Part shown: piece by piece, positions 4,954 through 39,960 of the stretch
How the letters are laid out: each line of letters begins with the position of its first letter
Position numbering within the stretch: position 1 is the stretch's first letter
Assembly (NCBI GenBank): GCA_050008535.1
Contig: JBEKML010000002.1
Location: forward strand, 148,881 to 212,880
DNA: 64,000 nucleotides
Source of the DNA: Minisyncoccia bacterium
GTDB lineage: Bacteria; Patescibacteriota; Minisyncoccia; UBA6257; 2-01-FULL-56-20
Reading direction: 5' to 3'
The notes under the pieces: generated by a model
The model's input: the letters and a program-made list of their open reading frames with translations, nothing else
Told to the model about the DNA's origin: nothing
Databases searched by the model: none
Position numbers and translations under genes: made by a program

Positions 4954-4954
4954 T

Positions 4955-5533: not shown

Positions 5534-5537
5534 GTTG

Positions 5538-6062: not shown

Positions 6063-6155
6063 GGGCGTTTAACCAAATTTTAATCATTTTTTAATGAATT
6101 GTACAAGTTCCACGTTCCAGTGTGCTCGTCATTATCAACATGGTATAATAAACAC

Positions 6156-6470: not shown

Positions 6471-6585
6471 TCAAAATTTAATGATTAGTATGTTATATTT
6501 GGATTTGACGTATGATTTATAAAATGTTAAAATCCGTCATCAGCAACTTTGTCGGAGTTGTTTGTGTATAATAAAGACAACCCTT

Positions 6586-7574: not shown

Positions 7575-7710
7575 TGGGTTATCCAGAGTGCGGGGAGGGA
7601 ACTGGCCCTACGATCCGCCGGCAACTTGCGAGGGCAAAGTGCTAATTCCAGCCCGAAAGGGGAAGATAAAGGTCGTAGCGCTTTTTCTTTCGGGAATGGC
7701 GTTTTTTATT
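7575..7710 (+). ncRNA. SAM-I (S-box) riboswitch with terminator-like expression platform
   Basis: GGTTATCCAGAGTGCGGGGAGGGAACTGGCCCTACGATCCGCCGGCAACT and AAAGTGCTAATTCCAGCCCGAAAGGGGAAGATAAAGG match the S-box consensus (GAGGGA.UGGCCC.AUGA..CCGGCAACC, GGUGCUAAUUCCAGC, and a P1 pairing TTATC/GATAA). A hairpin cccgaaag/ctttcggg plus a T-run follows, directly upstream of metK. Confidence 0.8.
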
Positions 7711-7738
7711 TGGTAATAAACAAAATAAAATTAAAATT

Positions 7739-8686
7739 ATGAACACAAAAATACGAACGGCGGAATTTGTTTCGCCAAGGCATCCGGACAAAATGTGCGA
7801 CCTTATCGCGGACACGCTTCTTGATGCGTTCCTTGCGGGGGATAAAAAGAGCCGCGTCGCGGCGGAGGTGATGGGCGGCCACGGGCACATCACTGTTTCG
7901 GGGGAGATCACGAGCCGGACGGACGTGGATATGGAAAAGATCGTGAAGGGCGTGGTGGGCGAGGAGTACAACGTTCACGTTTACCTTACGAAGCAGAGCC
8001 CGGAGATCGCGCAGGGCGTGGACACGGGCGGCGCGGGCGACCAGGGGATCATGATGGGGTATGCTACGCGGGAAGCCGAGAATTTTATGCCCCTGGAATA
8101 CGAGCTTGCGCGGGATCTCTGCCGGAAGATATATGCAAAATATCCGCATGACGGGAAAACGCAGGTGACGGTGGAGGGCACGAAGGTACGCACGGTCGTC
8201 GCGAGCTTTCAGGGTACAAAGACCCCGGAACTTATGGCGCTCGTGCGGGGGCTTATAAAAGCCGACGAGTATCTTGTGAATCCTGCGGGTGAGTGGATGA
8301 TGGGCGGCTTTGACGCCGATTCGGGAATTTCCGGCCGGAAGATCGTCATTGATAACTACGGCCCGGAGGTGGGCGTGGGCGGGGGATCCTTCTCCGGCAA
8401 GGATTACACAAAGGTGGACCGGAGCGGCGCCTACATGGCGCGCCGCATCGCGGTGGACTATTTGAAACAGCACGCGGACGTGGAAACGGTGCGCGTGAAG
8501 CTCGCGTACGCGATAGGGAAGGCGGAGCCCGTGATGGCGGTTTTGGACGCGGACGGCGTGGAGGTTGCCATTCAGGGATATGACCTCTCGCCTGCGGGGA
8601 TCTTCAAGTTTCTGGAGTTGGACAAGGTCCGGTGGGCGGAGACGTCGAGCTGGGGGCACTTCGGACGTGAGTTCAGTTGGGGATAG
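7739..8686 (+). CDS. metK: S-adenosylmethionine synthetase (short form)
   Basis: SPRHPDKMCDLIAD and GAGDQGIMMGYA are MetK signatures, and the C-terminal GHFGRE block is present. Confidence 0.9.
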   Translation: MNTKIRTAEFVSPRHPDKMCDLIADTLLDAFLAGDKKSRVAAEVMGGHGHITVSGEITSRTDVDMEKIVKGVVGEEYNVHVYLTKQSPEIAQGVDTGGAGDQGIMMGYATREAENFMPLEYELARDLCRKIYAKYPHDGKTQVTVEGTKVRTVVASFQGTKTPELMALVRGLIKADEYLVNPAGEWMMGGFDADSGISGRKIVIDNYGPEVGVGGGSFSGKDYTKVDRSGAYMARRIAVDYLKQHADVETVRVKLAYAIGKAEPVMAVLDADGVEVAIQGYDLSPAGIFKFLELDKVRWAETSSWGHFGREFSWG

Positions 8687-10544: not shown

Positions 10545-11488
10545 AGTACGATATTTATTTTCATAACGATTTCGACGGGCGGGCATCGGCGGCGGTGATG
10601 CTCGCTTTTTTGCGCAGCCGCGGGGACGATATCGCGCACTACGTTCCCGTGACCTACGGTTACGAAAAACCGTGGCTCAAGGAAGACCTGGCAAAGAAGA
10701 AAAATCCGGCCATCGTCGTTGATTTTCTCTACCATCCGAAGGCCGCCTGGTGGTTTGACCATCACCGCACGACCTTCCGGGAGGAAAAATGGAAACGCGC
10801 ATTCAAGCCGGACCGGTTCCATCGTTACGATTATTCTTACAGGTCCGCCTGCCACCTGGTCTATGATTCGCTCAAAAAAGATTTTGGATGGAAGCCGCCG
10901 CGGCATTTCAAAGAGCTCGTGCGCTGGCTGGATGTTGTGGATAGCGCCCGCTACCGTTCGGCGCGGGAAACGATCGAGATGAAGCATCCTGCGCTTGAGA
11001 TAAATGCGTTCATTGAAACACTGGAGCGTACCACGAACGAGGAGAATCGCTTTCTTATCGGATTGCTTGCGAAATATCCGCTTGCCCGCGTCGTCGCGGC
11101 GCCCCGCGTTGCCCGCGCGGTCCGTGCGTTGCACAAGAAAGTCGCCCGGAGCATGGCGTTTCTCAAAAAGAACCTTTTGGTTTTCAAACGGACGACCTTC
11201 GTTGACGTGACAAAAGACCCGCTGGATGGATTGTTGCGTTATGCACCGTACTATCTCTATCCAAAGAGCATCTACAACATACGGTTGAGGCCAAAAGGAA
11301 AAGGGGTGTGGTACCTCGGTGTCGGCGCGAGCCCGTGGCGGCGCTCGGCGAATAAATTGGAATTAGGGAAGCTTATGCGCCGTCGTTATGGCGGCGGGGG
11401 ACACAAAGCCATTGGTGCGACTGAATTTTTGACGAGGGCGGACGCAATGAAAGCGTTTAAAAAAATAAACGAGCTTCTCAATCGTTAA
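10541..11488 (+). CDS. DHH family phosphoesterase (NrnA-like)
   Basis: IYFHNDFDGRASAAV covers DHH motifs I and II; WFDHHRT is the DHH motif. The start overlaps the pgk stop (ATGA). Confidence 0.7.
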   Translation: MKYDIYFHNDFDGRASAAVMLAFLRSRGDDIAHYVPVTYGYEKPWLKEDLAKKKNPAIVVDFLYHPKAAWWFDHHRTTFREEKWKRAFKPDRFHRYDYSYRSACHLVYDSLKKDFGWKPPRHFKELVRWLDVVDSARYRSARETIEMKHPALEINAFIETLERTTNEENRFLIGLLAKYPLARVVAAPRVARAVRALHKKVARSMAFLKKNLLVFKRTTFVDVTKDPLDGLLRYAPYYLYPKSIYNIRLRPKGKGVWYLGVGASPWRRSANKLELGKLMRRRYGGGGHKAIGATEFLTRADAMKAFKKINELLNR

Positions 11489-12106
11489 ATGGCGACGAAG
11501 AAAAAATATTACGCGTATTTCGTGCCGGGCGAGAATCGCGCGGGGATCACCGACGACTGGGGCGAATGCGAAAAGATCGTTTCGGGGAAGGTGGGTGCGC
11601 GGTACAAAGCGTTTGAAACAAGGGAAGACGCGGAGCGGTGGCTCGCGCGCGGCGCGGTCTATGAGGCAAAAGCGCCGCCGCCGCGATTGGCGCGCGGGAT
11701 CTATTTTGACGCGGGGACGGGCAGGGGTCTTGGCGTGGAGATCAGCGTGACCGACGAGAAAGGGAAAAATCTGCTCCATAGGGCGCTTTCGACGCGCGAG
11801 CTGAATCGTTTCGGAAAGCATCTTTTGAAAAACGCCGCGGCGACCAACAACTACGGCGAGCTGCTTGCTTTGAAATATGCTCTGAAGATCGCGCGAAAAG
11901 AAAAAGTAAAAAAGATCTTCGGCGACAGCCGGCTTGTGATAGATTATTGGTCGCAGTGGCACGTGAAACGGAAAGAACTGCCGCGCGCGACCGTGGCGCT
12001 CGCGGACGAAGTGGCGGAATTGCGGGAAGCGTTTGAGAAAAAAGGCGGCACCGTGGCGCGCATTGCGGGCGCGCACAATCCGGCGGACCTTGGGTTCCAT
12101 CGGTGA
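11489..12106 (+). CDS. RNase H family protein with N-terminal RNase H1-type hybrid-binding (Cauli_VI-like) domain
   Basis: N-terminal YYAYFVPGENRAGITDDWGECEKIVSGKVGARYKAFETREDAERWL, then catalytic-like blocks DAGTG...TNNYGELLALKYAL...GDSRLVIDYW. Confidence 0.55.
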   Translation: MATKKKYYAYFVPGENRAGITDDWGECEKIVSGKVGARYKAFETREDAERWLARGAVYEAKAPPPRLARGIYFDAGTGRGLGVEISVTDEKGKNLLHRALSTRELNRFGKHLLKNAAATNNYGELLALKYALKIARKEKVKKIFGDSRLVIDYWSQWHVKRKELPRATVALADEVAELREAFEKKGGTVARIAGAHNPADLGFHR

Positions 12107-12137
12107 GCAGGGGAAGCCAAAAGGTATAATTCAATAA

Positions 12138-13889
12138 ATGGATGCCGAAAGCCGCAACTGCGCAAAATGTAAAAGCCAGTTTGTTGTTGAGCCGGAGGAT
12201 TTTGATTTTTACGCGAAGATAAGCGTTCCGCCGCCCACGTGGTGCCCGGAGTGCCGCAATCAAAGGAGGATGGCGTGGCGCGAGGAACGCGTGCTCTACC
12301 GCGGGACCTGCGCGTTGTGCGGAAAAGCGGTGGTTACCATGCACGCGCCCGGCGGTCCCTTCACGATCTATTGCCGGGAGTGTTACAAATCCGACAAGTG
12401 GGACTCGACGAGCTACGGGCGCGACTACGATTTCAAGAAACCGTTCTTTACGCAATACCGCGAACTTATGGAAGCCGTCCCGCGGCCGGCGCTCACGGGC
12501 AATAATTTGGTCAATAGCGATTTCACGCACGGATGCGAAAGCGTAAAAAATTGTTACTACCTTTTCTGGAGCTATTTTTCGGAAAACGCGGGGAACTGCT
12601 ACGGACTGCTTCTTTCCAAAAACGCCTACGATTGCTACGTGGTGGACAATTCCGACCATGTGTACGAGTCGTTGCATTCCAACCGTATGTACAAGATCAG
12701 GTTCGGCTATTTTTCCGACGAGTGCCTCGATTCATCGTTCCTTTACAATTGCCTCGGGTGCTCTGATTGTTTTGGGTGCATCAACCTAAGGAAACAAAAA
12801 TACTGCCTTTTCAACGAAAAATTGTCCAAAGAAGAATACTCCGCGAGGATCAAGGAGTGGGACTTGGGAAGTTATAAAAAACTGCAGGAGGCGAAGGAGA
12901 AATTCCGGGCTTTGTATATGTCCGTCCCGCACCGCTTCGCCCATGTCGTAAGCAGCCAAAACGTCACGGGGGATATCATACGGGACACGAAAGATTGCAA
13001 AATATGTTTTTGCGCATTGGATGGCGTGCAAAACTGCAAGTATCTGTACGCCGGCGGCCTCAATCTCAAAGACAGCATGGATGTAAGCGCCGGCGGCGAT
13101 ACGGCGGAGTTGCTTTATGAAGTGCACGGGGTGACCGGGCATGCATCGCGGTGTTTTTTCTCGGTGGGAGGAGGGAACAGCAGGGATACCTGGTATTCCG
13201 ATTGGGCGGATAATTCATCGGATGTATTCGGCTGCGTTTCTTTAAGGAACAAGCAGTATTGCATCTTGAACAAACAATATTCCCGCGAGGAGTATGAAAA
13301 ACTTGTCCCAAAGATCAAACAGCACATGGACGCCATGCCGTTCGTGGACAAGAAGGGGCGCGCGTACAAATTCGGGGAATTTTTCCCGACGGAACTTTCC
13401 GCGTATGCCTATAACGAAACATTCGCCTTTACCTGGTATCCAAAGGTGTTAACGAAGGACGAGGTGCTTGCCGAAGGTTGGCGGTGGCAGGACCCGTCGA
13501 CACGCTCTTACGAGGTCACCATGAAGGCGGAAGGTCTTCCCGACCATATTCGTGACGCAAGCGATTCAATTTCAAAAGAGACCATCGGCTGCCTGCACGC
13601 CGGAGCGTGCAATGAACTATGCACGACCGCGTTCCGCATTTCGCCCGAGGAGCTCGCTTTCTATCGAAAGATGAATGTTGCCCTGCCGCGGTTGTGCCCA
13701 AATTGCCGGCACGTGCAACGATTGAAATGGCGGAATATTTTCCATTTGTGGCATCGGCGTTGCATGTGCATCCATGCAGGTCATTCCCATGCCGGGCAAC
13801 CGTGCCCAAATACTTTTGAGACCACTTTCTCGCCGGAAAAACCGGAGGTTGTTTATTGCGACCAGTGTTACAAAGCCGAATTCCTATGA
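12138..13889 (+). CDS. Cys-rich multi-zinc-ribbon protein, paralog P2
   Basis: N-terminal CxxCxxxFxVEPEDFxFYxKIxVPPPTWCPECR zinc ribbon. Two internal CFGCxxLRxxKYC modules. C-terminal CxTAFRIxPEELxFYRKxNxALPRLCPNCRH...WHRRCMC and a tail PEVVYCDQCYKAEFL. A TATAAT box lies at 12125-12130. Confidence 0.8.
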   Translation: MDAESRNCAKCKSQFVVEPEDFDFYAKISVPPPTWCPECRNQRRMAWREERVLYRGTCALCGKAVVTMHAPGGPFTIYCRECYKSDKWDSTSYGRDYDFKKPFFTQYRELMEAVPRPALTGNNLVNSDFTHGCESVKNCYYLFWSYFSENAGNCYGLLLSKNAYDCYVVDNSDHVYESLHSNRMYKIRFGYFSDECLDSSFLYNCLGCSDCFGCINLRKQKYCLFNEKLSKEEYSARIKEWDLGSYKKLQEAKEKFRALYMSVPHRFAHVVSSQNVTGDIIRDTKDCKICFCALDGVQNCKYLYAGGLNLKDSMDVSAGGDTAELLYEVHGVTGHASRCFFSVGGGNSRDTWYSDWADNSSDVFGCVSLRNKQYCILNKQYSREEYEKLVPKIKQHMDAMPFVDKKGRAYKFGEFFPTELSAYAYNETFAFTWYPKVLTKDEVLAEGWRWQDPSTRSYEVTMKAEGLPDHIRDASDSISKETIGCLHAGACNELCTTAFRISPEELAFYRKMNVALPRLCPNCRHVQRLKWRNIFHLWHRRCMCIHAGHSHAGQPCPNTFETTFSPEKPEVVYCDQCYKAEFL

Positions 13890-14089
13890 ACTTCTGGAAG
13901 CTTAAAAGATACAAATACATGCTCAAGACGCTGTGGCAGAGCTTTTGGTTTAAAGTAAAAATATTTGTGCGGAAATTTCACCATACGACGATTTGACTTA
14001 ATCATCGCTTTTCTCTATAACGTAGTCAGCAATCCAGAGGGAAAATAAGCCCTAATATCAACCAGACAGGCAGGGAGGAGAAACGTCCT

Positions 14090-14887
14090 ATGCTGCTTCT
14101 ACAAGAAGCCCAGGTCCATACGGGGATGATCGTCGCCTTGGCTCTCGCCGGCAATACCGAGCCCGAGGTCGACGAACATGGTCCGTTACTACTCATAGCG
14201 CTCATGGGCGGCGTCGCCCCAATGCGCAAACGATTGTACGCCCTCAAGGGTCGTCCGCCTCTGTTTCAGAAAACGCCTGAGGGCTGGGTGGCGCAGCCCC
14301 TCACCGACGAACCGCTCCACCCCGATGTCACGGACGGCATGGAAGGCTTCGCCGAGCAGGTCCGCTTCATGCCGATCTACACCTTTACGCCGACCAACGC
14401 GCCGCACAACATGGAGTTCGTGGTCTACGTGAACGGTGAGCGGCTGAAGTACCCGAGTGGCCAGCGCTATGTCTACGTCCGCACCACCGTGGACGGCAAG
14501 ATCTTGTCGCACAACGGCTATGAGTACGATTTCTGGGAACAGGAATATGCGTTGCCGGAAAACGCCGTGCTTGTCCCCATCGGCAGGATTGAGATCACCG
14601 AAACCCCGCACGACCCGGCCATCATCTATCACGGGCCCGTGGTCGAGTGGGTGGGCGTCATGGCTCTGCTTTCCGAGCTCGCTGTGCGCGTCGGCCTGCG
14701 GATAACGGATGTGCATCACGACCACCACGTCGGCGACTTCCTGCACATCGGCCTCACGGGCGGAACCGAAGAAGACCGCCGCGAGTTTGCGGAACACGTC
14801 GTGAAGGACATCAGCCTGGCGAAGGGGTCGTTCGCCACCCACTGCCCGCACTGTTGGAAGACTATCGCGCGCGAACACAGTCTGTAG
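14090..14887 (+). CDS. Hypothetical protein (C-terminal HCPHCW)
   Basis: GGAGGAG ribosome-binding site 8 nt upstream. Amino-acid composition is more protein-like than the antisense ORF 14189-14935. A 10-bp perfect inverted repeat lies downstream. Confidence 0.5.
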   Translation: MLLLQEAQVHTGMIVALALAGNTEPEVDEHGPLLLIALMGGVAPMRKRLYALKGRPPLFQKTPEGWVAQPLTDEPLHPDVTDGMEGFAEQVRFMPIYTFTPTNAPHNMEFVVYVNGERLKYPSGQRYVYVRTTVDGKILSHNGYEYDFWEQEYALPENAVLVPIGRIEITETPHDPAIIYHGPVVEWVGVMALLSELAVRVGLRITDVHHDHHVGDFLHIGLTGGTEEDRREFAEHVVKDISLAKGSFATHCPHCWKTIAREHSL

Positions 14888-15022
14888 CTGTTCGCGCAAA
14901 ATCCCGGCGACGAGCCGGTGGAGAAGTGGCAGCACTTCTCCCTCTACCTGAATTCAGAAATTTGCTCCGGATTCAGGTAGGGTAAAAGTTTCATTTTTCC
15001 ATAATATGTGGTATAATGCTCA

Positions 15023-15422
15023 AGCTGGCAATCCAGACGGTCGCTCGGTCGCGTTGCGCAAGCAATGCCGGCCGGGAGGAAAGTCCGGACACCCACTCGT
15101 TTGCCTTCGGGCAAGCGGTTAAACAAGTAGCGGCTAACAGCCGCACGGCGCAAGCCGAGAGGTGCGATCAGTGACGCCCGCGTTTGAAAAGGCGCGGGGA
15201 GCCCGATCCCAAGCTAGACGGCTCAACTCCGTGATAGGGATAAAAAAACGGAGGTGAAACGGCAAAATCCTTACTGGGTGCAAGGCCGTGCCCCGGCGCA
15301 AGCCGGGGAGTGCCGCGCGAGCCCGCGAGCAATCAAGGGCCCAGATAAATGACCGTCCCTCGTCGCGTTCCGCAAGGAGCGCGGCGGGCGACAGAATCCG
15401 GCTTACGGATTGCCAACTGAAG
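15023..15422 (+). ncRNA. rnpB: RNase P RNA (bacterial type A)
   Basis: The P1 helix pairs AAGCTGGCAATCC with GGATTGCCAACT. The universal GGGAGGAAAGTCCGGAC block (P4 5' strand) and ACAGAATCCGGCTTAC (P4 3' strand) are both present. A TATAAT box at 15012-15017 precedes it and an intrinsic terminator follows. Confidence 0.85.
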
Positions 15423-15452
15423 ACCCCGCGCAAGCGGGGTCTTCTATTTGTT
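15418..15452 (+). terminator. Intrinsic terminator after rnpB
   Basis: aagaccccgc-gcaa-gcggggtctt hairpin followed by a CTATTTGTT T-rich tract. Confidence 0.7.
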
Positions 15453-15464
15453 AGAATAAAACCA

Positions 15465-17909
15465 ATGGACGATCTTTCTCAAACCAAGAAGGGGCTCACG
15501 CAGGCGGAGGCGGCGCGGCGCCTGAAGATCTACGGTCCGAACGAGCTCGCGGCGAAGAAAAAACTGCGGCCTCTTTTGATTTTCTTTTCAAAGTTCAAAA
15601 ATCCTCTCCTTGTTTTATTGATCGTCGCCGCGCTCGTCTCGGGCGCGCTCGGTTCCCGTTTTGAGGCGGGCGTGATCCTTGTGATCGTGCTTGCGAGCGC
15701 GCTTATTGATTTCGTGAATACCTATAAATCCGCGAAGGCGGCGGAAGAATTGCAGGAAAAAGTGAATATCACGGCGGCGGTGTTCCGCAACGGGGAATTG
15801 AAAGAGCGGAATATCCGCGAGGTGGTGCCGGGCGACGTATTCGCGCTTGAGGCGGGCGACCTCGTCCCGGCGGACGGAACTCTGCTTGAGGCCAAAGATT
15901 TTTTCGTGAACGAAAGCGTGCTTACGGGGGAATCGCTGCCGGTGGAAAAAGAACTTGTGACGCCGCCGAAGGCAACAATGCTCTTCTTGGGCACGAGCGT
16001 GGTATCGGGCAAAGGCCTTGCGGTTGCGACGGCCACAGGGTCCAAAACGAAGATGGGGAGCATCGCGGACAAGCTGAAGCAGCCCGAGGTCCCGACGGAA
16101 TTTGAAAAAAACCTGAAGGATTTCAGTTTGTTCATTTTCCGCACCACCCTTTTCCTCGTGCTTGCCGTGATCCTTTTGAACATCTTCGTGATCAAACAGG
16201 ACATGCTCCAGATTTTCCTTTTCGCGGTCGCGATCGCCGTAGGGCTGACGCCGGAACTGCTGCCCTTGATCGTCACGAGCAATCTTGCGAAAGGCGCGAT
16301 CAGGATGTCCGAGAACGGCGTCATCGTGAAAAAACTTGCCGCACTGCATAATTTCGGGAGCATTGATGTCTTGTGCACCGACAAGACCGGCACGCTTACG
16401 GAAGACCGCATCACGCTTATCAAGTGCGTGGACGGCTCCGGGCGCGAAAGCGAGGAAGTGTTCTTCTGGGGCTATTTGAGCAGCAGGCATCTTACCGGCG
16501 TCCGCGGCGTGCTGGACCATGCAATTGAAGCGTACAAGCGTGCGGACGTAAGCGGCTGGGAAAAAGTTGACGAAGTGCCTTTTGATGCCCTGCGGCGGCT
16601 GGAATCGGTGGTGATGAAGAAGGGCGAAGAGGTGGTGCTCATTGCGAAAGGCGCGCCGGAAAACATCATAAAAAATTCCGAAGGGCTCACCGGGGCGGCC
16701 AAGGAAAAGATCATGAAAGAATATGAGACGCTTTCAAGCGACGGTTTCCGCGTGTTGGGACTTGGCACCAAGAAAGTTCCTTTGAAAAAAATCTCTTACA
16801 GCAAGGCGGACGAACAGCAGCTCTCCTTTGTGGGTTTTTTGGCGTTCCTTGATCCGCCGAAGCGGACCGTGAAAGATACCTTGAAAAAAATGGCCGAGCA
16901 TAATGTGGCGATCAAAGTTATCACTGGAGATAATTTCCTTGTGACAAAAAAGATCGCCGAGGAGATCGGGCTTCCGATCACAGGCGCGCTCACGGGAGAC
17001 GAACTTCTCGCGATGGATGAACATGGGCTCCGGGCGAAGGTGGAGTCGGCGAACGTTTTCACGCGCGTTACGCCGGAGCAGAAAGAGTCCATCATCCGGG
17101 CGCTCCGCGCAAACGGGCACGTGGTGGCCTACATGGGCGACGGCGTGAACGACGTGCTTTCCCTCAGGGAGGCGGATGTGGGTATCTCGGTCCAGAACGC
17201 GGTGGACATCGCAAAAGGAACGGCGGACATCATTTTGATGAAAAAAGGACTTCACGAAATAATTGAGGGCGTAGTGGAAGGGCGGCGCACCTTCGCGAAC
17301 ACATTCAAATATTTGATGATGGCGCTCTCGTCCAACTTCGGCAACATGTTCAGCATGCCCGTCGCGTCCATCTTCCTGCCGTTCCTGCCGATGACGGCGC
17401 CCCAGATCCTTTTGAACAACCTTCTCTACGATTCCTCGCAGCTTGCGATCCCGTTCGATAATGTGGAAAAAGAATTCCTTGTACGTCCGAAAAAGTTCGA
17501 TATCCGCTTCATGAAACGCTTTATGATGATCTTCGGGCCGTTAAGCTCGTGCTTTGACTTCATCACCTTCGGCACGTTGTTTCTCGCGTTTCACATGGCG
17601 GGAGGGGCGTTCCAGACGGGATGGTTCCTGGAATCCATCGCCACGCAAACGTTCGTCGTGGGCATCATCCGCAATCGCGGCAGTTTTTGGAAGACAAAGC
17701 CGAGCTGGGAACTCGCTTTGAGCACTGTCCTCGCGGTCGCCGCGGCATGGATCATTCCGTATTCCTTGCTCGGCGCTCCGCTCGGCTTTGTAAAATTCGG
17801 CTGGTTGCCGCTCGTCGTCATCGCATGCATCGTTGCGGTATATCTTGCAGCCGTGGAATTTGCAAAAAAATATTTCTACCGGGCATACGGGGGACTGATT
17901 GAGAAATAA
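15465..17909 (+). CDS. Cation-transporting P-type ATPase (MgtA/PMCA-like)
   Basis: DKTGTLTEDRI phosphorylation motif, TGES, TGDN, GDGVNDVLSLREADVGIS, and about 10 TM segments. The ORF-track start at 15288 lies inside rnpB; the first Met after rnpB is at 15465 (MDDLSQ...). Confidence 0.85.
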   Translation: MDDLSQTKKGLTQAEAARRLKIYGPNELAAKKKLRPLLIFFSKFKNPLLVLLIVAALVSGALGSRFEAGVILVIVLASALIDFVNTYKSAKAAEELQEKVNITAAVFRNGELKERNIREVVPGDVFALEAGDLVPADGTLLEAKDFFVNESVLTGESLPVEKELVTPPKATMLFLGTSVVSGKGLAVATATGSKTKMGSIADKLKQPEVPTEFEKNLKDFSLFIFRTTLFLVLAVILLNIFVIKQDMLQIFLFAVAIAVGLTPELLPLIVTSNLAKGAIRMSENGVIVKKLAALHNFGSIDVLCTDKTGTLTEDRITLIKCVDGSGRESEEVFFWGYLSSRHLTGVRGVLDHAIEAYKRADVSGWEKVDEVPFDALRRLESVVMKKGEEVVLIAKGAPENIIKNSEGLTGAAKEKIMKEYETLSSDGFRVLGLGTKKVPLKKISYSKADEQQLSFVGFLAFLDPPKRTVKDTLKKMAEHNVAIKVITGDNFLVTKKIAEEIGLPITGALTGDELLAMDEHGLRAKVESANVFTRVTPEQKESIIRALRANGHVVAYMGDGVNDVLSLREADVGISVQNAVDIAKGTADIILMKKGLHEIIEGVVEGRRTFANTFKYLMMALSSNFGNMFSMPVASIFLPFLPMTAPQILLNNLLYDSSQLAIPFDNVEKEFLVRPKKFDIRFMKRFMMIFGPLSSCFDFITFGTLFLAFHMAGGAFQTGWFLESIATQTFVVGIIRNRGSFWKTKPSWELALSTVLAVAAAWIIPYSLLGAPLGFVKFGWLPLVVIACIVAVYLAAVEFAKKYFYRAYGGLIEK

Positions 17910-17957
17910 GGGCATTTATGTTCCAATGAATACAAAGGTCGCAACAAACTATTTACC

Positions 17958-18158
17958 ATGAAGAAACTTATTGTATTGTCGGCGGTTGCGATGTTCGTTG
18001 TGATGGCATTCGCCTTCAATTGGGCGAAGGCGGTTCCCGTTGGCTCTCCGCGGTGCGCCGCTGGAACGTCATATGTTCAACTGTATGTCAGTAGCACCCT
18101 TTCCGGCGTGTGGTGCGCCACGCCTTTCCAGATAGCAACAGCAAAAGCCAACCTCTAG
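17958..18158 (+). CDS. Small secreted peptide (signal peptide plus a 2-Cys mature region)
   Basis: MKKLIVLSAVAMFVVMAFAFNWAKA looks like a signal peptide; two Cys in the short mature part. No strong ribosome-binding site. Confidence 0.3.
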   Translation: MKKLIVLSAVAMFVVMAFAFNWAKAVPVGSPRCAAGTSYVQLYVSSTLSGVWCATPFQIATAKANL

Positions 18159-18171
18159 AATTCAAGATAAA

Positions 18172-19329
18172 ATGTTGATTGGAGGAATATCGCCCGCGCG
18201 CATCGCGGAAAAATTCGGGTCGCCTTTGTATGTGTATGACGGCGACGCTATTCGAAAAAAGTGCAAAGAGTTAAAGAAAAGCTTTCCGGGGATGAATCTG
18301 TATTATGCCTGCAAAGCGAACACGAACCCCGAGGTCATAAAAATAATTTTTAGCGAAGGTTTTGGGATTGAAACCGTAAGCCCGGGAGAGATCAGGGTTG
18401 CAAGGAAAGCGGGCGTACCGGCTTCAAAAATAACCTTTACGTGCGGGAGCATTGATGAGGGCGAGCTTGTGGCGGTCGCAAAGCAAAATATCCGCATTTA
18501 CCTTGACTCTTTGCATCAGGTGGAGATTTTCGGAAAACATTTTCCCGGAAAAGAAATCTCGGTGCGGCTGAATCAGGGGATCGGGGCCGGTCACCACGCG
18601 CACGTCGTGACCGGTGGGCCTGATAGTAAGTTCGGCATCGATAGAGCCCACATTGTGCAGCTCAAGAAACTGGCTAAGAAATATCGATTGCGCATAACGG
18701 GGCTTCATCAGCACATCGGATCAAATATTCTGGATATACCCATCTTTTTAAAGGCCATGAGTGCTTTGTTTGATACGGCCTTTCAGTTTCCCGGTCTTGC
18801 CCATCTTGATTTTGGCGGGGGACTCGGGGTTCCTTATAAGCCCGGTGAGCATGCATTGAATATGAAAATGCTCGGGCAGAAAGTGAAAAGCGTAACTTCG
18901 CATTTTATGAAGCGGTACGGGAAGTCCGTCGAAATGTCATTTGAACCGGGCAGGTATCTTGTCGCCCAAGCCGGGCATCTGATCGTTCAGGTGAACGATA
19001 TAAAACGCAATCCGACGAAAACGTTTGTCGGCGTAAATTCCGGTTTTAACCATCTTATTCGTCCGGCAATGTACGGATCGTACCATGAGATCGTGAACGT
19101 GACGCATCCCAAAAACAAACGCGAAAAAGTCACGGTCGCCGGAAATTTATGCGAGTCAGGGGACATATTTGCGCGGGATCGCATACTCCCGGCTCCGGAA
19201 TTGGGAGATATTCTTGTCGTTAAAAACGCGGGCGCATACGGCTACACTATGAGTTCCGATTATAATCTACGCCCCAAGCCCCGCGAGATTCTTATTTCAA
19301 AAAATAAAACCAAAATGATCCGAAAATGA
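18172..19329 (+). CDS. lysA: Diaminopimelate decarboxylase (PLP-dependent, fold type III)
   Basis: YACKANTNPEV, EPGRYLVAQAG, CESGD and GAYGYTMSSDYN motifs. Confidence 0.7.
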   Translation: MLIGGISPARIAEKFGSPLYVYDGDAIRKKCKELKKSFPGMNLYYACKANTNPEVIKIIFSEGFGIETVSPGEIRVARKAGVPASKITFTCGSIDEGELVAVAKQNIRIYLDSLHQVEIFGKHFPGKEISVRLNQGIGAGHHAHVVTGGPDSKFGIDRAHIVQLKKLAKKYRLRITGLHQHIGSNILDIPIFLKAMSALFDTAFQFPGLAHLDFGGGLGVPYKPGEHALNMKMLGQKVKSVTSHFMKRYGKSVEMSFEPGRYLVAQAGHLIVQVNDIKRNPTKTFVGVNSGFNHLIRPAMYGSYHEIVNVTHPKNKREKVTVAGNLCESGDIFARDRILPAPELGDILVVKNAGAYGYTMSSDYNLRPKPREILISKNKTKMIRK

Positions 19330-19365
19330 TTAGTTGCAGGGCCACGATATGTTATAATTAAGCCT

Positions 19366-19785
19366 ATGAATAAATTCATATGGGAGGACAAATATAGCGT
19401 GGGCATTTCCTCGCTTGACGAGCAACACAAACATTTCTTTGAAATCGCCGACGACATTGTTGATTTGCTCGGGCGCGGAGATTTCAATAAAGATGAGCTT
19501 TCCGCGCTGATAGTGAAATTGGCGAATCATGCTTTTGTCCACCTTAAAACAGAGGAAGATTATTTCGACAACCTTCATTATTTAAGCGCACCCCTTCATG
19601 TTGAAGCACACAAATTGTACAGAAAGAAAGTTGAGGATTATCTTCAGATGATACAAAGCCCGAACGCGGACATTAAAACGCTTGCCGACGAAGTCGCTAC
19701 TTTCGCAATATATTGGCTTTCAGACCATATTCTACTCATGGACAAGCAATATACGGTTTTTTTCAAAGAACACGGAGTTAAGTAA
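19366..19785 (+). CDS. Hemerythrin-like (bacteriohemerythrin) protein
   Basis: WEDKYSVGISSLDEQHKHFF and the later His/Glu/Asp ligand pattern. The gene is AT-rich relative to its flanks. Confidence 0.7.
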   Translation: MNKFIWEDKYSVGISSLDEQHKHFFEIADDIVDLLGRGDFNKDELSALIVKLANHAFVHLKTEEDYFDNLHYLSAPLHVEAHKLYRKKVEDYLQMIQSPNADIKTLADEVATFAIYWLSDHILLMDKQYTVFFKEHGVK

Positions 19786-19790
19786 GATTA

Positions 19791-20456
19791 ATGAACTATA
19801 AGCGGGTTGTTTTGATGATCGTGGTGGTTATCGCTGGAATCGCGGGATATATGTTGTTCGCGCAAAAAGCGCCAACCCAAACCTCCCCAGTTCCAAGCGA
19901 AACATATGGCATGAGCCAATATACCGACCCGATATACGGTTTCTCGTTTTGGTACCCAAGTGCATTGCGGGTAACGGCGACAACCACAGATAACGACGTG
20001 AATTTTCCGGGAGGCGTTGCTGTGGAAACTTTGCAGGTCGGCCCCGTCGGAGGCACGTCGGTCGTTGTGGTGAATTCCCCGACAGGCTCCATAACCGATG
20101 AACCGGCAAATCACGCAAGCCCGATCAACCAGACAGAATATTTCTACGATAGTGCTTCGGGGCAATGGATGGTAGCTTTTCCACAAGGCACAAATGGCGA
20201 AGGCTCGAGCGCGACGACAACAGCAAATGTTTCCAAGACCACCATTTCCGGCTTGATCATGTTGCCGAGCGGGCGCCGCTTTGACACAACCATCATTCCC
20301 TTGAGCACGATGCGATTCCTGGTTGTGAGTGATGGAGGAGGGAGCGCCTTCACCTCCCAGTTAGCACGGACGGTTGCGCAAGCGGGCGCATTGATTGACC
20401 CTTCAATACAAGCGACTGCCCTGCAGGAAGAGGAAGCTGCGTACTCCAAGGAATAA
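19791..20456 (+). CDS. Membrane-anchored hypothetical protein
   Basis: N-terminal TM helix, then a Thr/Ser/Gly-rich extracellular region. Confidence 0.45.
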   Translation: MNYKRVVLMIVVVIAGIAGYMLFAQKAPTQTSPVPSETYGMSQYTDPIYGFSFWYPSALRVTATTTDNDVNFPGGVAVETLQVGPVGGTSVVVVNSPTGSITDEPANHASPINQTEYFYDSASGQWMVAFPQGTNGEGSSATTTANVSKTTISGLIMLPSGRRFDTTIIPLSTMRFLVVSDGGGSAFTSQLARTVAQAGALIDPSIQATALQEEEAAYSKE

Positions 20457-20570
20457 TGTGGCAAAGACCTGAAGCTGCAAATTCTCTGCCTGGTCTCCCC
20501 GTTAAAAGCGAAAGCGGCACGTCCCGTGGGATGGTGCCGCTAATCGATTCGGTCTTGTGCGCGGATGTCT

Positions 20571-21065
20571 TCAGAAAGCGACTCCGCACTGAAGCTCGGC
20601 GAAGTACGGGTTGGCGGTGGTCCGCTCGGCGAGCCATCGCGGCGCTTCGTCAATCCCACCAATGAGCATCAATTCGAGGAGAAGCATCGCTACTTCATCC
20701 TGTTCTTCCTTGGAGCCAGAGGAGAAGGACAAGATGAATTTCCTCCCTCGAATTGCGCTGCCGTAGCGCTTCGGCACGGCGTCCATATCGCGGTTCTCGA
20801 ACGAGGTGAAGTGAAGGGGATTCTCCGCGAGCCGCCTAGCCTTTTCGAGGGCGAATCCCATGCACGCTTCGTGCTCTTCGATGGTGATGCATCCGAACAC
20901 GCAGGTGAGCAGGGGAAGCCCGGTTGAGTTGTCGGCGACACAGAGAACGCCACCGTGTTGATGACCCTCGTATCCGGGGAAACATTCGAGGATCAGTCCC
21001 GCAAGTTCCAGAACTCGCATGAGTTCCTCTGTATTGATTGTCGGCGGGCCAGCAATCAGTGCCAT
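20571..21065 (-). CDS. Hypothetical protein
   Basis: AAGGAGG ribosome-binding site 7 nt upstream of ATG. The plus-strand alternative (20565-20927) has antisense-like composition. Confidence 0.45.
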   Translation of the reverse strand: MALIAGPPTINTEELMRVLELAGLILECFPGYEGHQHGGVLCVADNSTGLPLLTCVFGCITIEEHEACMGFALEKARRLAENPLHFTSFENRDMDAVPKRYGSAIRGRKFILSFSSGSKEEQDEVAMLLLELMLIGGIDEAPRWLAERTTANPYFAELQCGVAF

Positions 21066-21118
21066 GGCTGCGCCTCCTTTCAGAACTACTGAAGATAGGA
21101 TAGCACAAAACTTACTGT

Positions 21119-21235
21119 AAACACCTGAAGTTGCGATTTGCTGAATCGTAAACTCAGGTGTTTGGGGTGGTGCTACGCATACTGCGTTCCTGCCCCTTGC
21201 GCCTACCCGGCATCGTCAGGGTAGGGATTTGAATA
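21119..21235. repeat. 115-bp structured intergenic repeat, copy A
   Basis: About 96% identical to 22487-22602. Contains nested hairpins: AACACCTGA...TCAGGTGTT, ACGCA-GTA-TGCGT and CCTACCC-ggcatcgtca-GGGTAGG. Confidence 0.8.
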
Positions 21236-21260
21236 TTGGTTGTTGCTCACGCGGGGTGAT

Positions 21261-22070
21261 TTATTCCGGCTGGAATTCGAACGAGCAGGACAGCCGGAGG
21301 TGTTCCTGATGCGAAAGGTACGTGCCGTTCGGCGTCCCGAAGAGGAGGCCGTCGCCCATCGTCGGCTCGACGCAGAAGTACTCCGGGCTGTCGGACCAGG
21401 CCACGGCTTGCCTGTAGCCATGCTCCAACTTCATGACGACTTTCCCTATGCCGTTCAGACGGATGCCGATGACGGGTCCCGTTGTGAGAACCTCCGCCGA
21501 CATCGGATGAAATTCGCGACGTCCATCAGGGAACTCCACGCACCCGCCATTCGGGGTATTGAAGAACGAGTGCAATGCGCAGCACACCGGCATGCGTTTT
21601 CCCGGGATGAACGACGTGCACACCAGGTCGGTTTCGTAGCGGAAGCCGTTCGGCAACGCTGCGATCTCGATTGAGCCGTAGAGATTCCATGGGAACGCAT
21701 TCCTGCTCCCGGGAATCTCGAATCTCATCGAGGCACCACCGTGGGTTTGCCGGTTCGGATTGGGATCTTTGAGCAGGATGCCGGAGCAGAGCGTGTTGCG
21801 CAAAGGTCCGTGTTGGGGGAGCCCGTAGCTCGCGACCGTATCAGGCAGGACCCCGAGGTTCGGCAGGCATTGGTGCATCCCGCCGCTGATTCTGAGCTTA
21901 TTCCCGGCGAGAGCGTTTCCTCGCGGAAAGAAGACCTCCGTGTTGCCGTGCTGCCATCGCTCGACATTGCCTCCCACCGGGGAGACAACAAGCATGGTCT
22001 TCTCGTTTTGTAGGAGCAAGTTTGTACCGCCTTTCTGTTTGCGAATGACTCTAAAGATGTTATAGAACAA
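21261..22070 (-). CDS. Aldose 1-epimerase family protein (mutarotase-like)
   Basis: FCVEP active-site-like motif, HG...GG pattern, beta-sandwich-type composition. Confidence 0.45.
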   Translation of the reverse strand: MFYNIFRVIRKQKGGTNLLLQNEKTMLVVSPVGGNVERWQHGNTEVFFPRGNALAGNKLRISGGMHQCLPNLGVLPDTVASYGLPQHGPLRNTLCSGILLKDPNPNRQTHGGASMRFEIPGSRNAFPWNLYGSIEIAALPNGFRYETDLVCTSFIPGKRMPVCCALHSFFNTPNGGCVEFPDGRREFHPMSAEVLTTGPVIGIRLNGIGKVVMKLEHGYRQAVAWSDSPEYFCVEPTMGDGLLFGTPNGTYLSHQEHLRLSCSFEFQPE

Positions 22071-22232
22071 AAGGCTGTTTGTTTCAAGTTTAGGTCTGAT
22101 TGAGAAATAAAAAAGGGAACGGGGCGAAACGGAAATCCGCCTCGCCCCGATTTGCCTTAGAGACCGCGCGCGCCGGGCGGTCTCGGGCTGATGGAAAGCC
22201 CAATGCCGATGTTCCGTCGATGGCTCGTTCTC

Positions 22233-22352
22233 TCAGCCGCGGAGGATTGCCCCTAGGATCGTGAGCGCGATTGCGAGCAACCCGCCGAGGGCAAGTTTTC
22301 CAGCAGGACTGATCTGCGGGCCACTTAAGTACTGGGGTCGCGGTTGTATCAT
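22233..22352 (-). CDS. 39-aa hydrophobic membrane peptide (MIQPRPQYLSGPQISPAGKLALGGLLAIALTILGAILRG)
   Basis: Own promoter TTGATT-17-TATGAT on the minus strand, GAGGGGG ribosome-binding site, and a downstream minus-strand intrinsic terminator (ggggcga...tcgcccc plus T-run) before the next gene. Below the 60-aa cutoff of the ORF track. Confidence 0.4.
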   Translation of the reverse strand: MIQPRPQYLSGPQISPAGKLALGGLLAIALTILGAILRG

Positions 22353-22486
22353 GTCTTCCCCCTCTGATTAAATCATACCACAGAACGTGCGTTAAATCAA
22401 CTTTAACTTTTTCTTCGTGAAAAGCGTGTGCCAAACTATTGTTGGCTGGCTGGCTTGAGCGATGTTCGAACGATTTTGAAACTAAA

Positions 22487-22602
22487 AACACCTGAAATTG
22501 CGATTTGCTAGATCGTAAACTCAGGTGTTTGGGGTGGTGCTACGCATACTGCGTTCCTGCCCCTCGCGCCTACCCGGCATCGTCAGGGTAGGGATTCGAA
22601 TA
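22487..22602. repeat. 115-bp structured intergenic repeat, copy B
   Basis: Near-identical to copy A. Lies immediately 3' of the PEP-CTERM gene stop. Confidence 0.8.
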
Positions 22603-22603
22603 C

Positions 22604-23413
22604 TTACGCCATCTGCTTCCGGCTGTGCAACCTGTACGCAAGGCCGAGGAGCCCAATGACGAGGAGTGCGGTGTTTGGCTCGGGAATAGTACCGCCGCCG
22701 GTCGTTGCTTCGCAACCCGACACGACATTCGTATCCATCGTCACGGCGCCGTTGCGCGCCAGGGCTCTACCGCACGGAATGTTCGCGCCGGTGTTCAACG
22801 TGATACTCGTGAGCGCCAGGATATTTCCTGCGAAATTGGTGTGGGTCCCGAGAGTTGCCGAACTACCCACCAGCCAAAAGAGGTTACCGCCCGTGCCACC
22901 GTCGGCAAAAAGAACAGACGCGCCACTTGCGGTCGTGAGCGTGCTCCCCATCCGGAAAAGGAAGACCGCATTCGGATCACCCTCGGCGTCGAGCGTGAGC
23001 GTTCCAGTCAACTGAGCCGACGACGCAAAGCAATAGACTCCTGGCGTGAGCGTCATGCCGCCAAGGTCTTGACCGGTCAAGGCGCTCGAGCACTCTTCAC
23101 CTGCGGCAAAATTGTATGCCGAGGTCAGATCGCTCTGGGCCTGCCTCGCGACGTTATCCGCGGAGTGTATCGTTCCTCCGCTCACAATCCCAGGAGGAAA
23201 TCCTGTGATTGCGGTACCCAGCCATACCCCCAGATTTCCATTGATGCTGGTCGCGCCGGTATTGGTCACTGTTGATCCGCCGAGAACAGCAAAAGAGTCC
23301 GCTGTCCCAAGATCGACGTTGATAGCGCCAGCATAAACGCCTGCTGGCAGCAAAAACGAGAGAATCACCAAGCAAATGCCACGCATACTTTCCACCCTCA
23401 GCTCCCATCTCAA
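22604..23413 (-). CDS. PEP-CTERM sorting-domain protein with ice-binding-like (DUF3494) domain
   Basis: Signal peptide. DUF3494-like block SFAVLGGSTVTNTGATSINGNLGVWLGTAITGFPPG. C-terminal IPEPNTALLVIGLLGLAYRLHSRKQ fits PEP + TM helix + basic tail. Confidence 0.7.
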   Translation of the reverse strand: MRWELRVESMRGICLVILSFLLPAGVYAGAINVDLGTADSFAVLGGSTVTNTGATSINGNLGVWLGTAITGFPPGIVSGGTIHSADNVARQAQSDLTSAYNFAAGEECSSALTGQDLGGMTLTPGVYCFASSAQLTGTLTLDAEGDPNAVFLFRMGSTLTTASGASVLFADGGTGGNLFWLVGSSATLGTHTNFAGNILALTSITLNTGANIPCGRALARNGAVTMDTNVVSGCEATTGGGTIPEPNTALLVIGLLGLAYRLHSRKQMA

Positions 23414-23617
23414 CGTCCCATCCTACTGCGTAAAATACTCGGGGATTTCCGGGGAGCAAACTGATTACGTTTTTTCATAAGCAGTTCTCTCCCCAGAATC
23501 TATTCATGATTCAATGTTCCATTTTATTTCTACCATAATTTTTGCAATTTCGTCAAATATCGCTTCGCGAGTTCAAGCTTGAAATGCAACACGGGTTAGT
23601 TCACAGAAGAGGCGATG

Positions 23618-23688
23618 CTGCCGGGCTTGGATTCGAACCAAGATGACATGATTCAGAGTCATGGATCCTACCATTAGATGACCCGGCA
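23618..23688 (-). tRNA. tRNA-Gln (anticodon CTG)
   Basis: Cloverleaf with acceptor TGCCGGG/CCCGGCA (U1-A72, as in tRNA-Gln), D arm ATCT-AATGGTA-GGAT, anticodon arm CATGA-CTCTGAA-TCATG, and T arm CTTGG-TTCGAAT-CCAAG. Confidence 0.85.
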
Positions 23689-23761
23689 ATTTAGCGTAGC
23701 AGTTACTATTATAGGGATTCTGCGGATTTTATCAATCCTGATAGTGGTATAATAAACGCAT

Positions 23762-39519: not shown

Positions 39520-39606
39520 GCCTGTGCACTTTGTAACAAAATCCGGTTTGATTAATAGGAAAGCGCAGCCCTGGGGGGGCTGCGCGATGCTGTTCTTGAC
39601 GCTGGG

Positions 39607-39909: not shown

Positions 39910-39960
39910 CTGATCCTCCAGACGTGATTTCTAAAGAAAGGCTAGCGCAGCGTTCTCTCA

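Follow-up and report, generated by a model that had tools for sequence, protein, structure and literature searches.

The BOX elements of Streptococcus pneumoniae and the ERIC (or IRU) elements of enterobacteria are intergenic sequences of ∼100–200 nt that contain several stem-loops, have no coding capacity and are often located downstream of genes in transcribed regions. An effect on mRNA stability or expression has been proposed for them, and both families are common to several species, with tens to hundreds of copies in each genome. Elements of the IS200/IS605 type, for their part, require neither inverted repeats nor target duplications. The repeat described here was found in a 64-kb window (the whole stretch of DNA analyzed) from the genome of an uncultured member of the Paceibacterota (CPR). 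Its features suggest neither a new RNA family nor a mobile element but a spacer at gene ends that is lineage-specific and low in copy number. It is present as two direct repeats, copies A and B, which lie 1.4 kb apart and are 94–96% identical, with the following features at and around them.

21116..21237, unstranded: repeat copy A, 122 nt (repeat search, blastn, fold, covariance model R1 at 149.5 bits)
21119..21163, unstranded: hairpin H1 of copy A, AAACACCTGA...TCAGGTGTTT, 45 nt and almost perfectly palindromic, CGATT/AATCG forming the inner stem (fold)
21164..21196, unstranded: hairpin H2 of copy A, GGGGTGG/CCTGCCCC around ACGCA-TAC-TGCGT (fold, pair count)
21202..21225, unstranded: hairpin H3 of copy A, CCTACCC-10 nt-GGGTAGG (fold)
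22483..22604, unstranded: repeat copy B, 122 nt, in the orientation of copy A (repeat search, blastn, fold, covariance model R1 at 147.5 bits)
22486..22530, unstranded: hairpin H1 of copy B, followed on the minus strand by UUUUUAGUUUCAAAAU, ΔG −16.9 kcal/mol (fold)
22531..22563, unstranded: hairpin H2 of copy B (fold)
22569..22592, unstranded: hairpin H3 of copy B (fold)
20571..21065, minus strand: 164-aa gene of unknown family, downstream of copy A (gene calls, homologues)
21092..21121, minus strand: promoter-like site of the 164-aa gene, TTTACA-18-TATCTT, the −35 hexamer being the last bases of copy A
21261..22070, minus strand: epimerase-like gene, 269 aa, with copy A 23 nt beyond its stop codon
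22120..22149, minus strand: canonical intrinsic terminator after the 39-aa ORF, 13-bp G+C-rich stem and T run, ΔG −25.7 kcal/mol
22233..22352, minus strand: 39-aa hydrophobic ORF between the copies (read directly from the sequence; in no gene list)
22372..22400, minus strand: promoter-like site of the 39-aa ORF, TTGATT-17-TATGAT, TG-extended, ∼80 nt downstream of copy B
22604..23386, minus strand: Ice_binding gene, called with 260 aa (longest ORF to 23413) and ending in a PEP-CTERM-like tail, with copy B beginning at the stop codon
14891..14985, plus strand: possible diverged third module, three hairpins directly after the stop codon of the gene at 14090–14887 (plus strand) and before the promoter of the RNase P RNA

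Repeat search returned one two-copy family (21114–21235 and 22481–22602; 122 nt, 94%), and blastn put the identity of the copies at 94.3% over 122 nt and at 95.7% over a 117-nt core. In the pairwise alignment, identity extends from about 21114/22481 to 21237/22604, where it ends sharply in unrelated flanks. All six differences between the copies are transitions (A/G and T/C, in both directions). The near-identity (∼96%) claimed in a first-pass annotation, which had been made from the sequence alone, is thereby borne out, and the element is a discrete 122-nt unit, the edges of which coincide with a block of hairpins. Both copies are non-coding. Their placement after stop codons is as had been claimed: copy B abuts the one at 22604–22606, and copy A is separated by the 23 nt from the one at 21261–21263.

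Read on the minus strand, the order is tRNA-Gln, ice-binding gene, copy B, promoter, 39-aa ORF, terminator, epimerase-like gene, copy A, promoter, 164-aa gene. Each copy takes up the interval from a stop codon to the next gene's promoter (promoter-like sites at 21121–21092 after copy A and at 22400–22372 after copy B), in the same orientation relative to the co-directional genes. The original gene names were borne out in part. Assignment of the ice-binding gene is solid (Pfam PF11999, E 2e-62). Its PEP-CTERM tail, after which it had originally been named, is visible by eye (IPEPNTALLVIGLLGLAYRLHSRK) but has no HMM match at E ≤ 0.01; for the other original name, epimerase-like, the gene's own match to Aldose_epim is only sub-threshold (E 0.0015, 18 bits vs a cut-off of 27), although PF01263 is present in the homologues P0002 and P0003. 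The downstream part of the promoter of the 164-aa gene (TTTTGTGC..ATCTTC) aligns with the promoter region of its homologue in L011. A function of the element as cis-regulatory leader of the 164-aa gene was rejected: the homologues (55–67% identity; L009–L015) have only a TTGACA-17-TAnnnT promoter upstream, and the promoter in the window lies downstream of the element. At another site in the window, a second pair of direct repeats (39 nt, at 39491 and 39960) surrounds another small gene.

The minimum-energy fold consists of three consecutive hairpins with unpaired ends and is the same in copies A and B; all three hairpins named by the first-pass annotation are present in both. The outer stem of H1 in copy A is formed by AACACCTGA/TCAGGTGTT, with CGATT/AATCG nested within, and the sequences of H1 and H3 are unrelated. 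Read along the minus strand, as the flanking genes are, copy A has the order H3′, H2′, H1′, the last hairpin having a sense-strand ΔG of −17.4 kcal/mol and being followed by UUUACAGUAAGUUUUG. Folded as RNA, the plus strand reaches −54 and −55 kcal/mol (z −4.4 and −6.2) and the minus strand −42 and −43 kcal/mol (z −3.6). The plus-strand (antisense) RNA is ∼12 kcal/mol more stable because it contains five G·U pairs vs one on the minus strand, including two adjacent ones in H2 of copy A that exist on the plus strand only; this imbalance is not significant (one-sided binomial about 0.11). Folded as DNA, both strands are about equally stable. Where the copies differ by GA-to-AG, both pairs are retained only on the plus strand; a T-to-C change in the strains L006 and L066 breaks a plus-strand pair and keeps a G·U pair on the minus strand.

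That the repeat is real and not an assembly artifact follows from the independent assemblies that carry both copies, at least four for the same species. Both copies are at the same places in ENA ERZ27250059, JGI 3300038451 and JGI 3300038417. L006, a slightly diverged strain, contains copy A in full and copy B in part at a contig end, and L066 and L067 each contain part of copy A. Short-read contigs from several samples end inside the element (L005, L006, L066, L067, L072 and L073). At two or three of the sites that distinguish the copies of the window, copy A of L006 and L066 has the allele of copy B, a pattern that is consistent with gene conversion between the copies. Look-ups via the ice-binding, 164-aa and epimerase-like proteins returned neither an empty-site allele nor a variant neighborhood, only the same arrangement or contigs stopping inside the element.

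No further near-identical copy was found in ∼73 kb (the window plus 8.6 kb of the same contig); as this is only ∼8% of a genome of roughly 0.8–1 Mb, more copies may exist. The element is absent beside homologues of the 164-aa gene (55–67% identity; L009–L015) and beside an epimerase-like homologue (53% identity; L007/L008), and the loci around PilB (69%) of relatives contain no copy and are not syntenic on the element's side. No match was obtained in 185,579 species genomes (hybrid pattern), in viral contigs (three patterns) or in plasmids and phages (blastn), and a six-frame pseudo-protein of the element, which would detect spurious called ORFs overlapping other copies, matched nothing among 5.8 billion protein clusters. 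A pattern scan of JGI metagenomes returned only the same locus, on one 1457-nt contig, a negative that is weak because the scan missed JGI contigs known to carry the element. At gathering thresholds, the Rfam 15 matches of the window comprised two tRNAs and a SAM riboswitch and nothing else; over 20400–22800 at E ≤ 10, the only matches on the element were weak ones to the H1 palindrome (mir-87, 17 bits; TYMV_upPK, 15.6 bits), far below threshold. A degenerate fragment suspected by the first-pass annotation at ∼20470 was rejected as a chance match (blastn E 2.5 to 18), which a covariance-model search with filters off did not return at E ≤ 10. A weak, diverged third module may be present at 14891–14985. 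Its last hairpin shares the ACCTGA...TCAGGT stem, its orientation to the upstream gene is that of copies A and B, the covariance model scores it at 17.2 bits (rough E 0.005), its fold has a z of −4.95, and the pattern was found 3 times vs 0.01 expected; the local alignment with the element is not significant, and the MAFFT alignment is structurally inconsistent.

The covariance-model search, which had been recommended at the outset, recovered both copies (149.5 and 147.5 bits). A count of pairs showed no covariation: among four distinct variants, which diverge too little for a decision, 39 of the 42 pairs are invariant, and none changed on both sides. Substitutions were rarer in stems (3 of 84) than in loops (7 of 38; p = 0.01); since this signal is gone when the edge columns are omitted (p = 0.29), the contrast is no evidence of constraint. 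The first-pass annotation had held that, with only two copies and no covariation, local duplication would be the most economical explanation, and this is essentially the situation encountered: ∼73 kb contains two near-identical copies, relatives and public collections yielded none, and not one of the 42 pairs shows a compensatory change.

The explanation that we favor, albeit tentatively and at somewhat less than an even chance, is that the element, restricted to its lineage and low in copy number, is a three-hairpin spacer at gene 3′ ends on a Paceibacterota (CPR) chromosome and that it may act in termination or 3′-end protection and was duplicated locally. The existence of two near-identical copies would then go back to a local event (duplication or recombination) rather than to membership in a dispersed or conserved family. 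Transcription would proceed on the minus strand, the element forming the 3′ untranslated part of both the ice-binding and the epimerase-like mRNA. H1′ (∼−17 kcal/mol), together with its U-containing tail (UUUACAGUAAGUUUUG in copy A, UUUUUAGUUUCAAAAU in copy B), might help to halt transcription before the next promoter or might shield the mRNA 3′ end from exonucleases. The second copy could have arisen by recombination at the element that, like a single crossover, inserted or duplicated the segment in which the 39-aa ORF and the epimerase-like gene lie; thereafter, alleles may have been exchanged between the copies by gene conversion. Because no empty-site strain was found, the insertion step is purely inferential.

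Between either stop codon and the next promoter, no other terminator-like site was found. In the relatives L011 and L015, the slot that copy A occupies here, after the preceding gene and before the promoter of the 164-aa homologue, contains classical terminators (G+C-rich hairpin and T run). Of the roles considered by the first-pass annotation, the terminator module is the best functional guess, given the stop-to-promoter position and the terminators in these relatives, but neither copy is a textbook intrinsic terminator: H1′ is a 45-nt hairpin with an interrupted stem and an A+U-rich base, its U run comprises 3 (A) or 5 (B) residues, and it was not flagged by the terminator consensus scan. 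Canonical terminators are rare in the window anyway (4 of ∼25 unit ends), so that a missing one is a weak argument. Hairpin strings occur at other gene ends in the window, at 3850–3985 and 14888–14985, and thus multi-hairpin 3′ regions recur in this genome. The plus strand folding ∼12 kcal/mol better, the opposite of what would be expected, speaks against a role of the gene-sense RNA.

It is unlikely that the element is instead a non-autonomous mobile or selfish repeat (REP/REPIN-, BOX-, ERIC- or PATE-like) with more copies elsewhere, dispersed in trans by an enzyme whose gene lies outside the window and tolerated after insertion at gene ends. A discrete, sharp-edged unit in two unrelated contexts, the possible third member at 14891–14985 and the Y1_Tnp (PF01797) gene carried by the relative L009 would suit such an origin, as would the contigs of several samples that break inside the element, but these breaks are equally expected from two copies. 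The ends of the element, however, are not terminal inverted repeats (AATATTCAAATCCC and ACTGTAAACACCTG, the reverse complement of the other end, match at ∼6 of 12 positions), target-site duplications are absent at the edges of both copies, and no tetranucleotide is shared next to them (left flanks ACTT or CTGT vs TGAA or CTAA, depending on edge placement; the right flanks differ too). Neither a transposase nor an integrase, a tyrosine recombinase or a reverse transcriptase is encoded in the 64-kb window, only two copies, 1.4 kb apart, occur in ∼73 kb, and nothing was found in species genomes or by six-frame protein search. The REP or MITE element envisaged by the first-pass annotation is accordingly unsupported for want of inverted repeats, target-site duplication, a conserved flanking tetranucleotide and a transposase in the window. 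Derivation from IS200/IS605 (PATE) was specifically rejected, the end hairpins H1 and H3 being dissimilar and the edges having no fixed tetra- or pentanucleotide. So was a TR/VR pair of a diversity-generating retroelement (DGR): the transitions go in both directions, the copies are non-coding, and there is no reverse transcriptase in the window. Less probable than a mobile repeat is a recombination site at cassette junctions, attC-like and without any RNA role, at which a circle with the 39-aa ORF, the epimerase-like gene and one copy was integrated through a site-specific or homologous crossover, the partner being an element already present next to tRNA-Gln. The layout is that of a single crossover, with direct repeats bracketing a segment of 1.25 kb whose promoter and terminator are its own; relative to the closest genomes, the pilus side is conserved, and the synteny break falls exactly on the 3′ side of tRNA-Gln; the G+C content of the four minus-strand genes (0.58–0.60) is higher than that of their neighbors; and the repeat pair at 39491 and 39960 likewise brackets a small gene. 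Against this, no integrase is encoded in the window, none of the assemblies yielded an empty-site allele, and the hallmarks of attC are missing, in that there are no RYYYAAC/GTTRRRY core sites at the ends of either strand (CCCAAAC and GTTTACA; GTTTGGG), the ends are unpaired, and three separate hairpins are formed. The 3′ end of tRNA-Gln (TTCGAATCCAAGCCCGGCAG) is not repeated: it occurs only once at up to 3 mismatches, and ARAGORN detected no tRNA in the element, which is why both a tRNA 3′-end remnant and an att site derived from tRNA-Gln were rejected. The TTCRAATCCC at the start of the element is merely a T-loop-like 10-mer.

Very improbable, in comparison, is a small or antisense RNA gene transcribed from the plus strand and present as two paralogous copies, as the first-pass annotation had also proposed. 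The plus strand does fold clearly more stably, it has the more G·U pairs, and the GA-to-AG difference spares its pairing only; but the G·U imbalance falls short of significance, DNA strands fold about equally, and the T-to-C change of L006 and L066 acts in the opposite direction. A consensus scan, in itself weak evidence, found no plus-strand sigma-70-like site in 20300–23700 and no terminator-like site at the element ends. The flanks upstream of the copies are unrelated, H3 of copy B is not followed by a U run, and Rfam yielded at E ≤ 10 nothing beyond the weak matches far below threshold. With neither an Rfam family nor a plus-strand promoter-like site or terminator, this proposal is unsupported. 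The least probable explanation of all is a junction site of an undescribed CPR system of cassette shuffling, in which promoter-bearing segments would be inserted near tRNA-Gln at a folded three-hairpin site of ∼120 nt, the plus strand being active as single-stranded DNA or RNA, the enzyme being encoded elsewhere in the genome and the gene at 39491/39960 being another product. An active plus strand would explain the G·U (or G·T) pairs on that strand.

As it stands, the finding matters little, the element being one more lineage-specific structured intergenic repeat in a Paceibacterota genome. It is of mild use as a marker, as it breaks short-read assemblies at the locus in several samples, and it points to a synteny breakpoint with gene gain on the 3′ side of tRNA-Gln. 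Should transcript mapping show that strings of hairpins end CPR transcripts, this would be informative on termination in reduced genomes, because classical U-tract terminators are rare in the window. An empty-site allele or many dispersed copies, if found, would be evidence for a new kind of gene insertion or for a mobile element in CPR.

Among described systems, integron attC sites (e.g., those of Vibrio cholerae, ∼120 nt) are similar in that they, too, follow genes at their 3′ ends as direct repeats more than 90% identical, with a gene-sized segment between them. In contrast to them, the element has no R″/R′ core sites, forms three independent hairpins instead of one bulged stem and has no integrase nearby, and the segment it encloses contains a promoter and a terminator. 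REP units and BIMEs (REPIN), which are associated with RAYT transposases, are likewise palindromic, extragenic and located at gene 3′ ends, where a stabilizing effect on the upstream mRNA is possible (REP), and they, too, are without terminal inverted repeats or target duplications. REP units, however, are 20–40 nt long, highly repeated and accompanied by a RAYT gene, whereas the element is 122 nt long, has three hairpins and a low copy number and is not accompanied by a Y1 transposase in the window. BOX and ERIC correspond to it in build and placement; they differ from the element in that the latter has two near-identical copies in ∼73 kb, none in relatives, and no similarity to Rfam families, plasmids or phages. 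From intrinsic terminators, of which the clear one at 22120–22149 looks different, the element is set apart by its interrupted 45-nt hairpin with an A+U-rich base and a short U run and by the two hairpins that precede it. What it has in common with them is its position between a stop codon and the next promoter and its stable terminal hairpin, followed by a U-containing sequence (UUUUUAGUUUC in copy B).

The sole repeat family in the window that fits the two near-identical direct copies reported by the first-pass annotation lies at 21114-21235 (copy A) and 22481-22602 (copy B), each 122 nt long and 94% identical to the other. Blastn put the identity at 94.3% for the full 122 nt and at 95.7% for a core of 117 nt, and every one of the six differences was a transition. 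When the copies were aligned with their flanks, identity started at ~21114/22481 and ended at 21237/22604, and the flanks were unrelated on either side. Because independent assemblies (ENA ERZ27250059; JGI 3300038451, which is 100% identical to the window; JGI 3300038417) have both copies at identical positions, an assembly artefact was ruled out. A slightly diverged strain (L006) carries a complete copy A and, at its contig end, a partial copy B; two further loci of the same species (L066 and L067) each contain a partial copy A. At two or three sites that differ between the window's copies, copy A of other strains bears the copy-B allele, which is most simply explained by gene conversion between the copies. 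The degenerate fragment suspected at ~20470 proved to be a chance-level match (blastn E 2.5-18), absent from a filter-free covariance-model search.

The described placement 3' of minus-strand genes was also confirmed, copy B running from the stop codon of the Ice_binding gene and copy A starting 23 nt past that of the epimerase-like gene. The genes surrounding the element are all encoded on the minus strand, and both copies have the same orientation relative to them. In minus-strand order, the region reads:

23688-23617, minus strand: tRNA-Gln
23386-22604, minus strand: Ice_binding gene with a PEP-CTERM-like tail
copy B, after the Ice_binding gene and before the next site
22400-22372, minus strand: TG-extended promoter-like site
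22352-22233, minus strand: 39-aa hydrophobic ORF
22149-22120, minus strand: canonical terminator
22070-21261, minus strand: epimerase-like gene
copy A, after the epimerase-like gene and before the next site
21121-21092, minus strand: promoter-like site
21065-20571, minus strand: 164-aa gene

The 39-aa ORF (22233-22352, minus strand; MIQPRPQYLSGPQISPAGKLALGGLLAIALTILGAILRG), missing from every public gene list, is served by a TG-extended promoter of its own, a ribosome-binding site (GAGGGGG) and a strong terminator. The Ice_binding gene of the ERZ27250059 strain contains a 48-bp indel (23013-23060), and the gene caller there gives a different, opposite-strand ORF in place of this gene. Judged by PilB (69% identity), the nearest species genomes are the MAG of a 'Candidatus Paceibacterota bacterium' and a chromosome of 827 kb from an uncultured bacterium; the source organism is thus a CPR/Paceibacterota bacterium, with a genome probably smaller than 1 Mb. 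Synteny with these genomes is kept on the side of tRNA-Gln that faces the pilus genes and disappears on the side of the element.

Folding of both copies reproduced the three hairpins previously described for each, which in copy A are:

21119-21163: first hairpin (H1)
21164-21196: second hairpin (H2)
21202-21225: third hairpin (H3)

The plus strand of the two copies reached -54 and -55 kcal/mol as RNA, with z of -4.4 and -6.2, and the minus strand -42 and -43 kcal/mol, with z of -3.6; when folded as DNA, the strands were about equal. Of the 42 pairs, 39 were invariant among the four distinct variants and none was changed on both sides, and these pairs neither support nor contradict a selected structure. 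A GA/AG difference between the copies preserves both pairs on the plus strand only; a T-to-C change in L006 and L066 breaks a plus-strand pair and retains a G.U pair on the minus strand. The five G.U pairs on the plus strand versus one on the minus strand are suggestive, but not significant (about 0.11, one-sided). An apparent deficit of stem substitutions (p=0.01) was lost once the edge columns were left out (p=0.29).

A covariance model of the element (R1), built from three variants, matched nothing beyond the two copies within the window and same-species loci, with no match in loci of relatives or in the 8.6 kb of source contig beyond the window; these copy counts rest on the visible part of the genome, about 8%. 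In relatives with a homologue of the 164-aa protein (55-67% identity), a TTGACA-17-TAnnnT promoter is all that lies upstream of the homologue, and two of these relatives (L011 and L015) carry a classical terminator in the slot held by copy A in the window. A relative with an epimerase-like homologue (53% identity) likewise has a classical terminator and lacks the element. A degenerate H2 pattern matched nothing among 185,579 species genomes and, within the JGI metagenome collection, nothing but a single 1457-nt contig of the same locus, the latter a weak negative as the scan missed the element-bearing contigs Ga0427963_0000164 and Ga0187866_1044458. There was no match to three patterns in viral contigs, to the element by blastn in plasmids and phages, or to its six-frame pseudo-protein among 5.8 billion protein clusters.

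With filters off, R1 also matched 14891-14985 (plus strand) weakly (17.2 bits, rough E 0.005). This region folds into three hairpins (z -4.95) and lies directly past the stop of the plus-strand gene 14090-14887, ahead of the RNase P RNA promoter, in the same orientation to its upstream gene as copies A and B. Its last hairpin has the ACCTGA...TCAGGT stem of the element, a pattern found three times in the window versus 0.01 expected and, among the compared loci, in this species only, bar one match in an unrelated Sedimenticola locus (L029). Collinear patches are held in common (AAATCCC, GACGAxGCCGG, AGTTT); local alignment was not significant, and MAFFT left the helices unaligned. The region may be an old, diverged relative of the element and is treated as a lead, not counted as a member. 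The adjacent RNase P RNA (bacterial class A, 15025-15420, plus strand; 87.7 bits, E 3e-27), with a TGTGGTATAAT promoter just upstream (~15000), was missed by the default Rfam scan because its score is under the gathering score of 100. Only five or six of ~24 gene-downstream regions are strongly structured; a three-hairpin string right after gene 1444-3849 (3850-3985, plus strand; -70 kcal/mol, z -4.7) is unrelated to the element in sequence.

Several other features of the window were recorded. A 39-nt direct repeat (39491-39529 and 39960-39998, plus strand; 87% identical) brackets a 100-aa minus-strand gene together with the terminator of that gene. The 22-nt core of the repeat, TCGTTCGAACATCGTCCAGGCC, occurs again at 22452-22473 (minus strand), 8 nt downstream of copy B in gene sense (three matches versus 0 expected), and in L011 a motif resembling it precedes the promoter of the 164-aa homologue. 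The repeat may be an operator placed upstream of promoters, or a further bracketed insertion. Over 10571-23012, all 124 differences from ERZ27250059 (L002) fall inside 11500-14000 and the other ~10 kb are identical; this 2.5-kb tract, which covers a zinc-ribbon-tailed paralogue, suggests a recombination tract or hypervariable gene. Four paralogous proteins (12-1085, 12138-13889, 51271-53130 and 53145-54896), without Pfam match, have in common a conserved cysteine-rich C-terminal tail (CP..FE.....P..PE.VYC..CY) and explain repeat families D1-D5. The region 1444-7461 encodes a T4SS coupling-protein-like ATPase, an N6/N4 DNA methylase, a PD-(D/E)XK nuclease-like protein and a Fic protein, and has a mobile-element flavour; G+C is low at 4-8 kb (0.425 versus about 0.54 elsewhere). 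The target gene of a SAM riboswitch (S box, 7576-7672, plus strand; 59 bits) is not obvious, because the long ORF that comes next (7706-8659) has the opposite orientation.

Since the unit edges match the hairpin block and both copies fill the terminator slot facing the same way, the element is best read as a structured spacer located 3' of genes, which would probably help to stop transcription ahead of the next promoter or shield transcript 3' ends. H1 read in gene sense has a dG of -17 kcal/mol and is followed by UUUUUAGUUUC in copy B and UUUACAGUAAGUUUU in copy A. A transcript-end role is weakened by the better fold of the plus strand, and by the hairpin being unlike the clear terminators of this genome. 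A plus-strand small RNA is an unlikely alternative, which fails on at least one defining feature among those tested. The same holds for a dispersed mobile repeat, and no integrase, transposase or reverse transcriptase was found in the whole 64 kb.

For the two-copy state, a local event is the simplest account. The first-pass annotation had considered local duplication most economical if only two copies existed without covariation; two copies were found, with 0 of 42 pairs changed on both sides, and local duplication is thus the economical reading. Direct repeats around a 1.25-kb segment that carries a promoter and terminator of its own would be the outcome of a single crossover at a resident copy; the same-species assemblies showed no empty-site allele. 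Such an arrangement may also be read as an attC-like cassette junction, which lacks at least one of the defining features tested, and a CPR cassette-junction site is very improbable. The element is a real, ordinary, lineage-specific, low-copy structured intergenic repeat, with no link to a known family.
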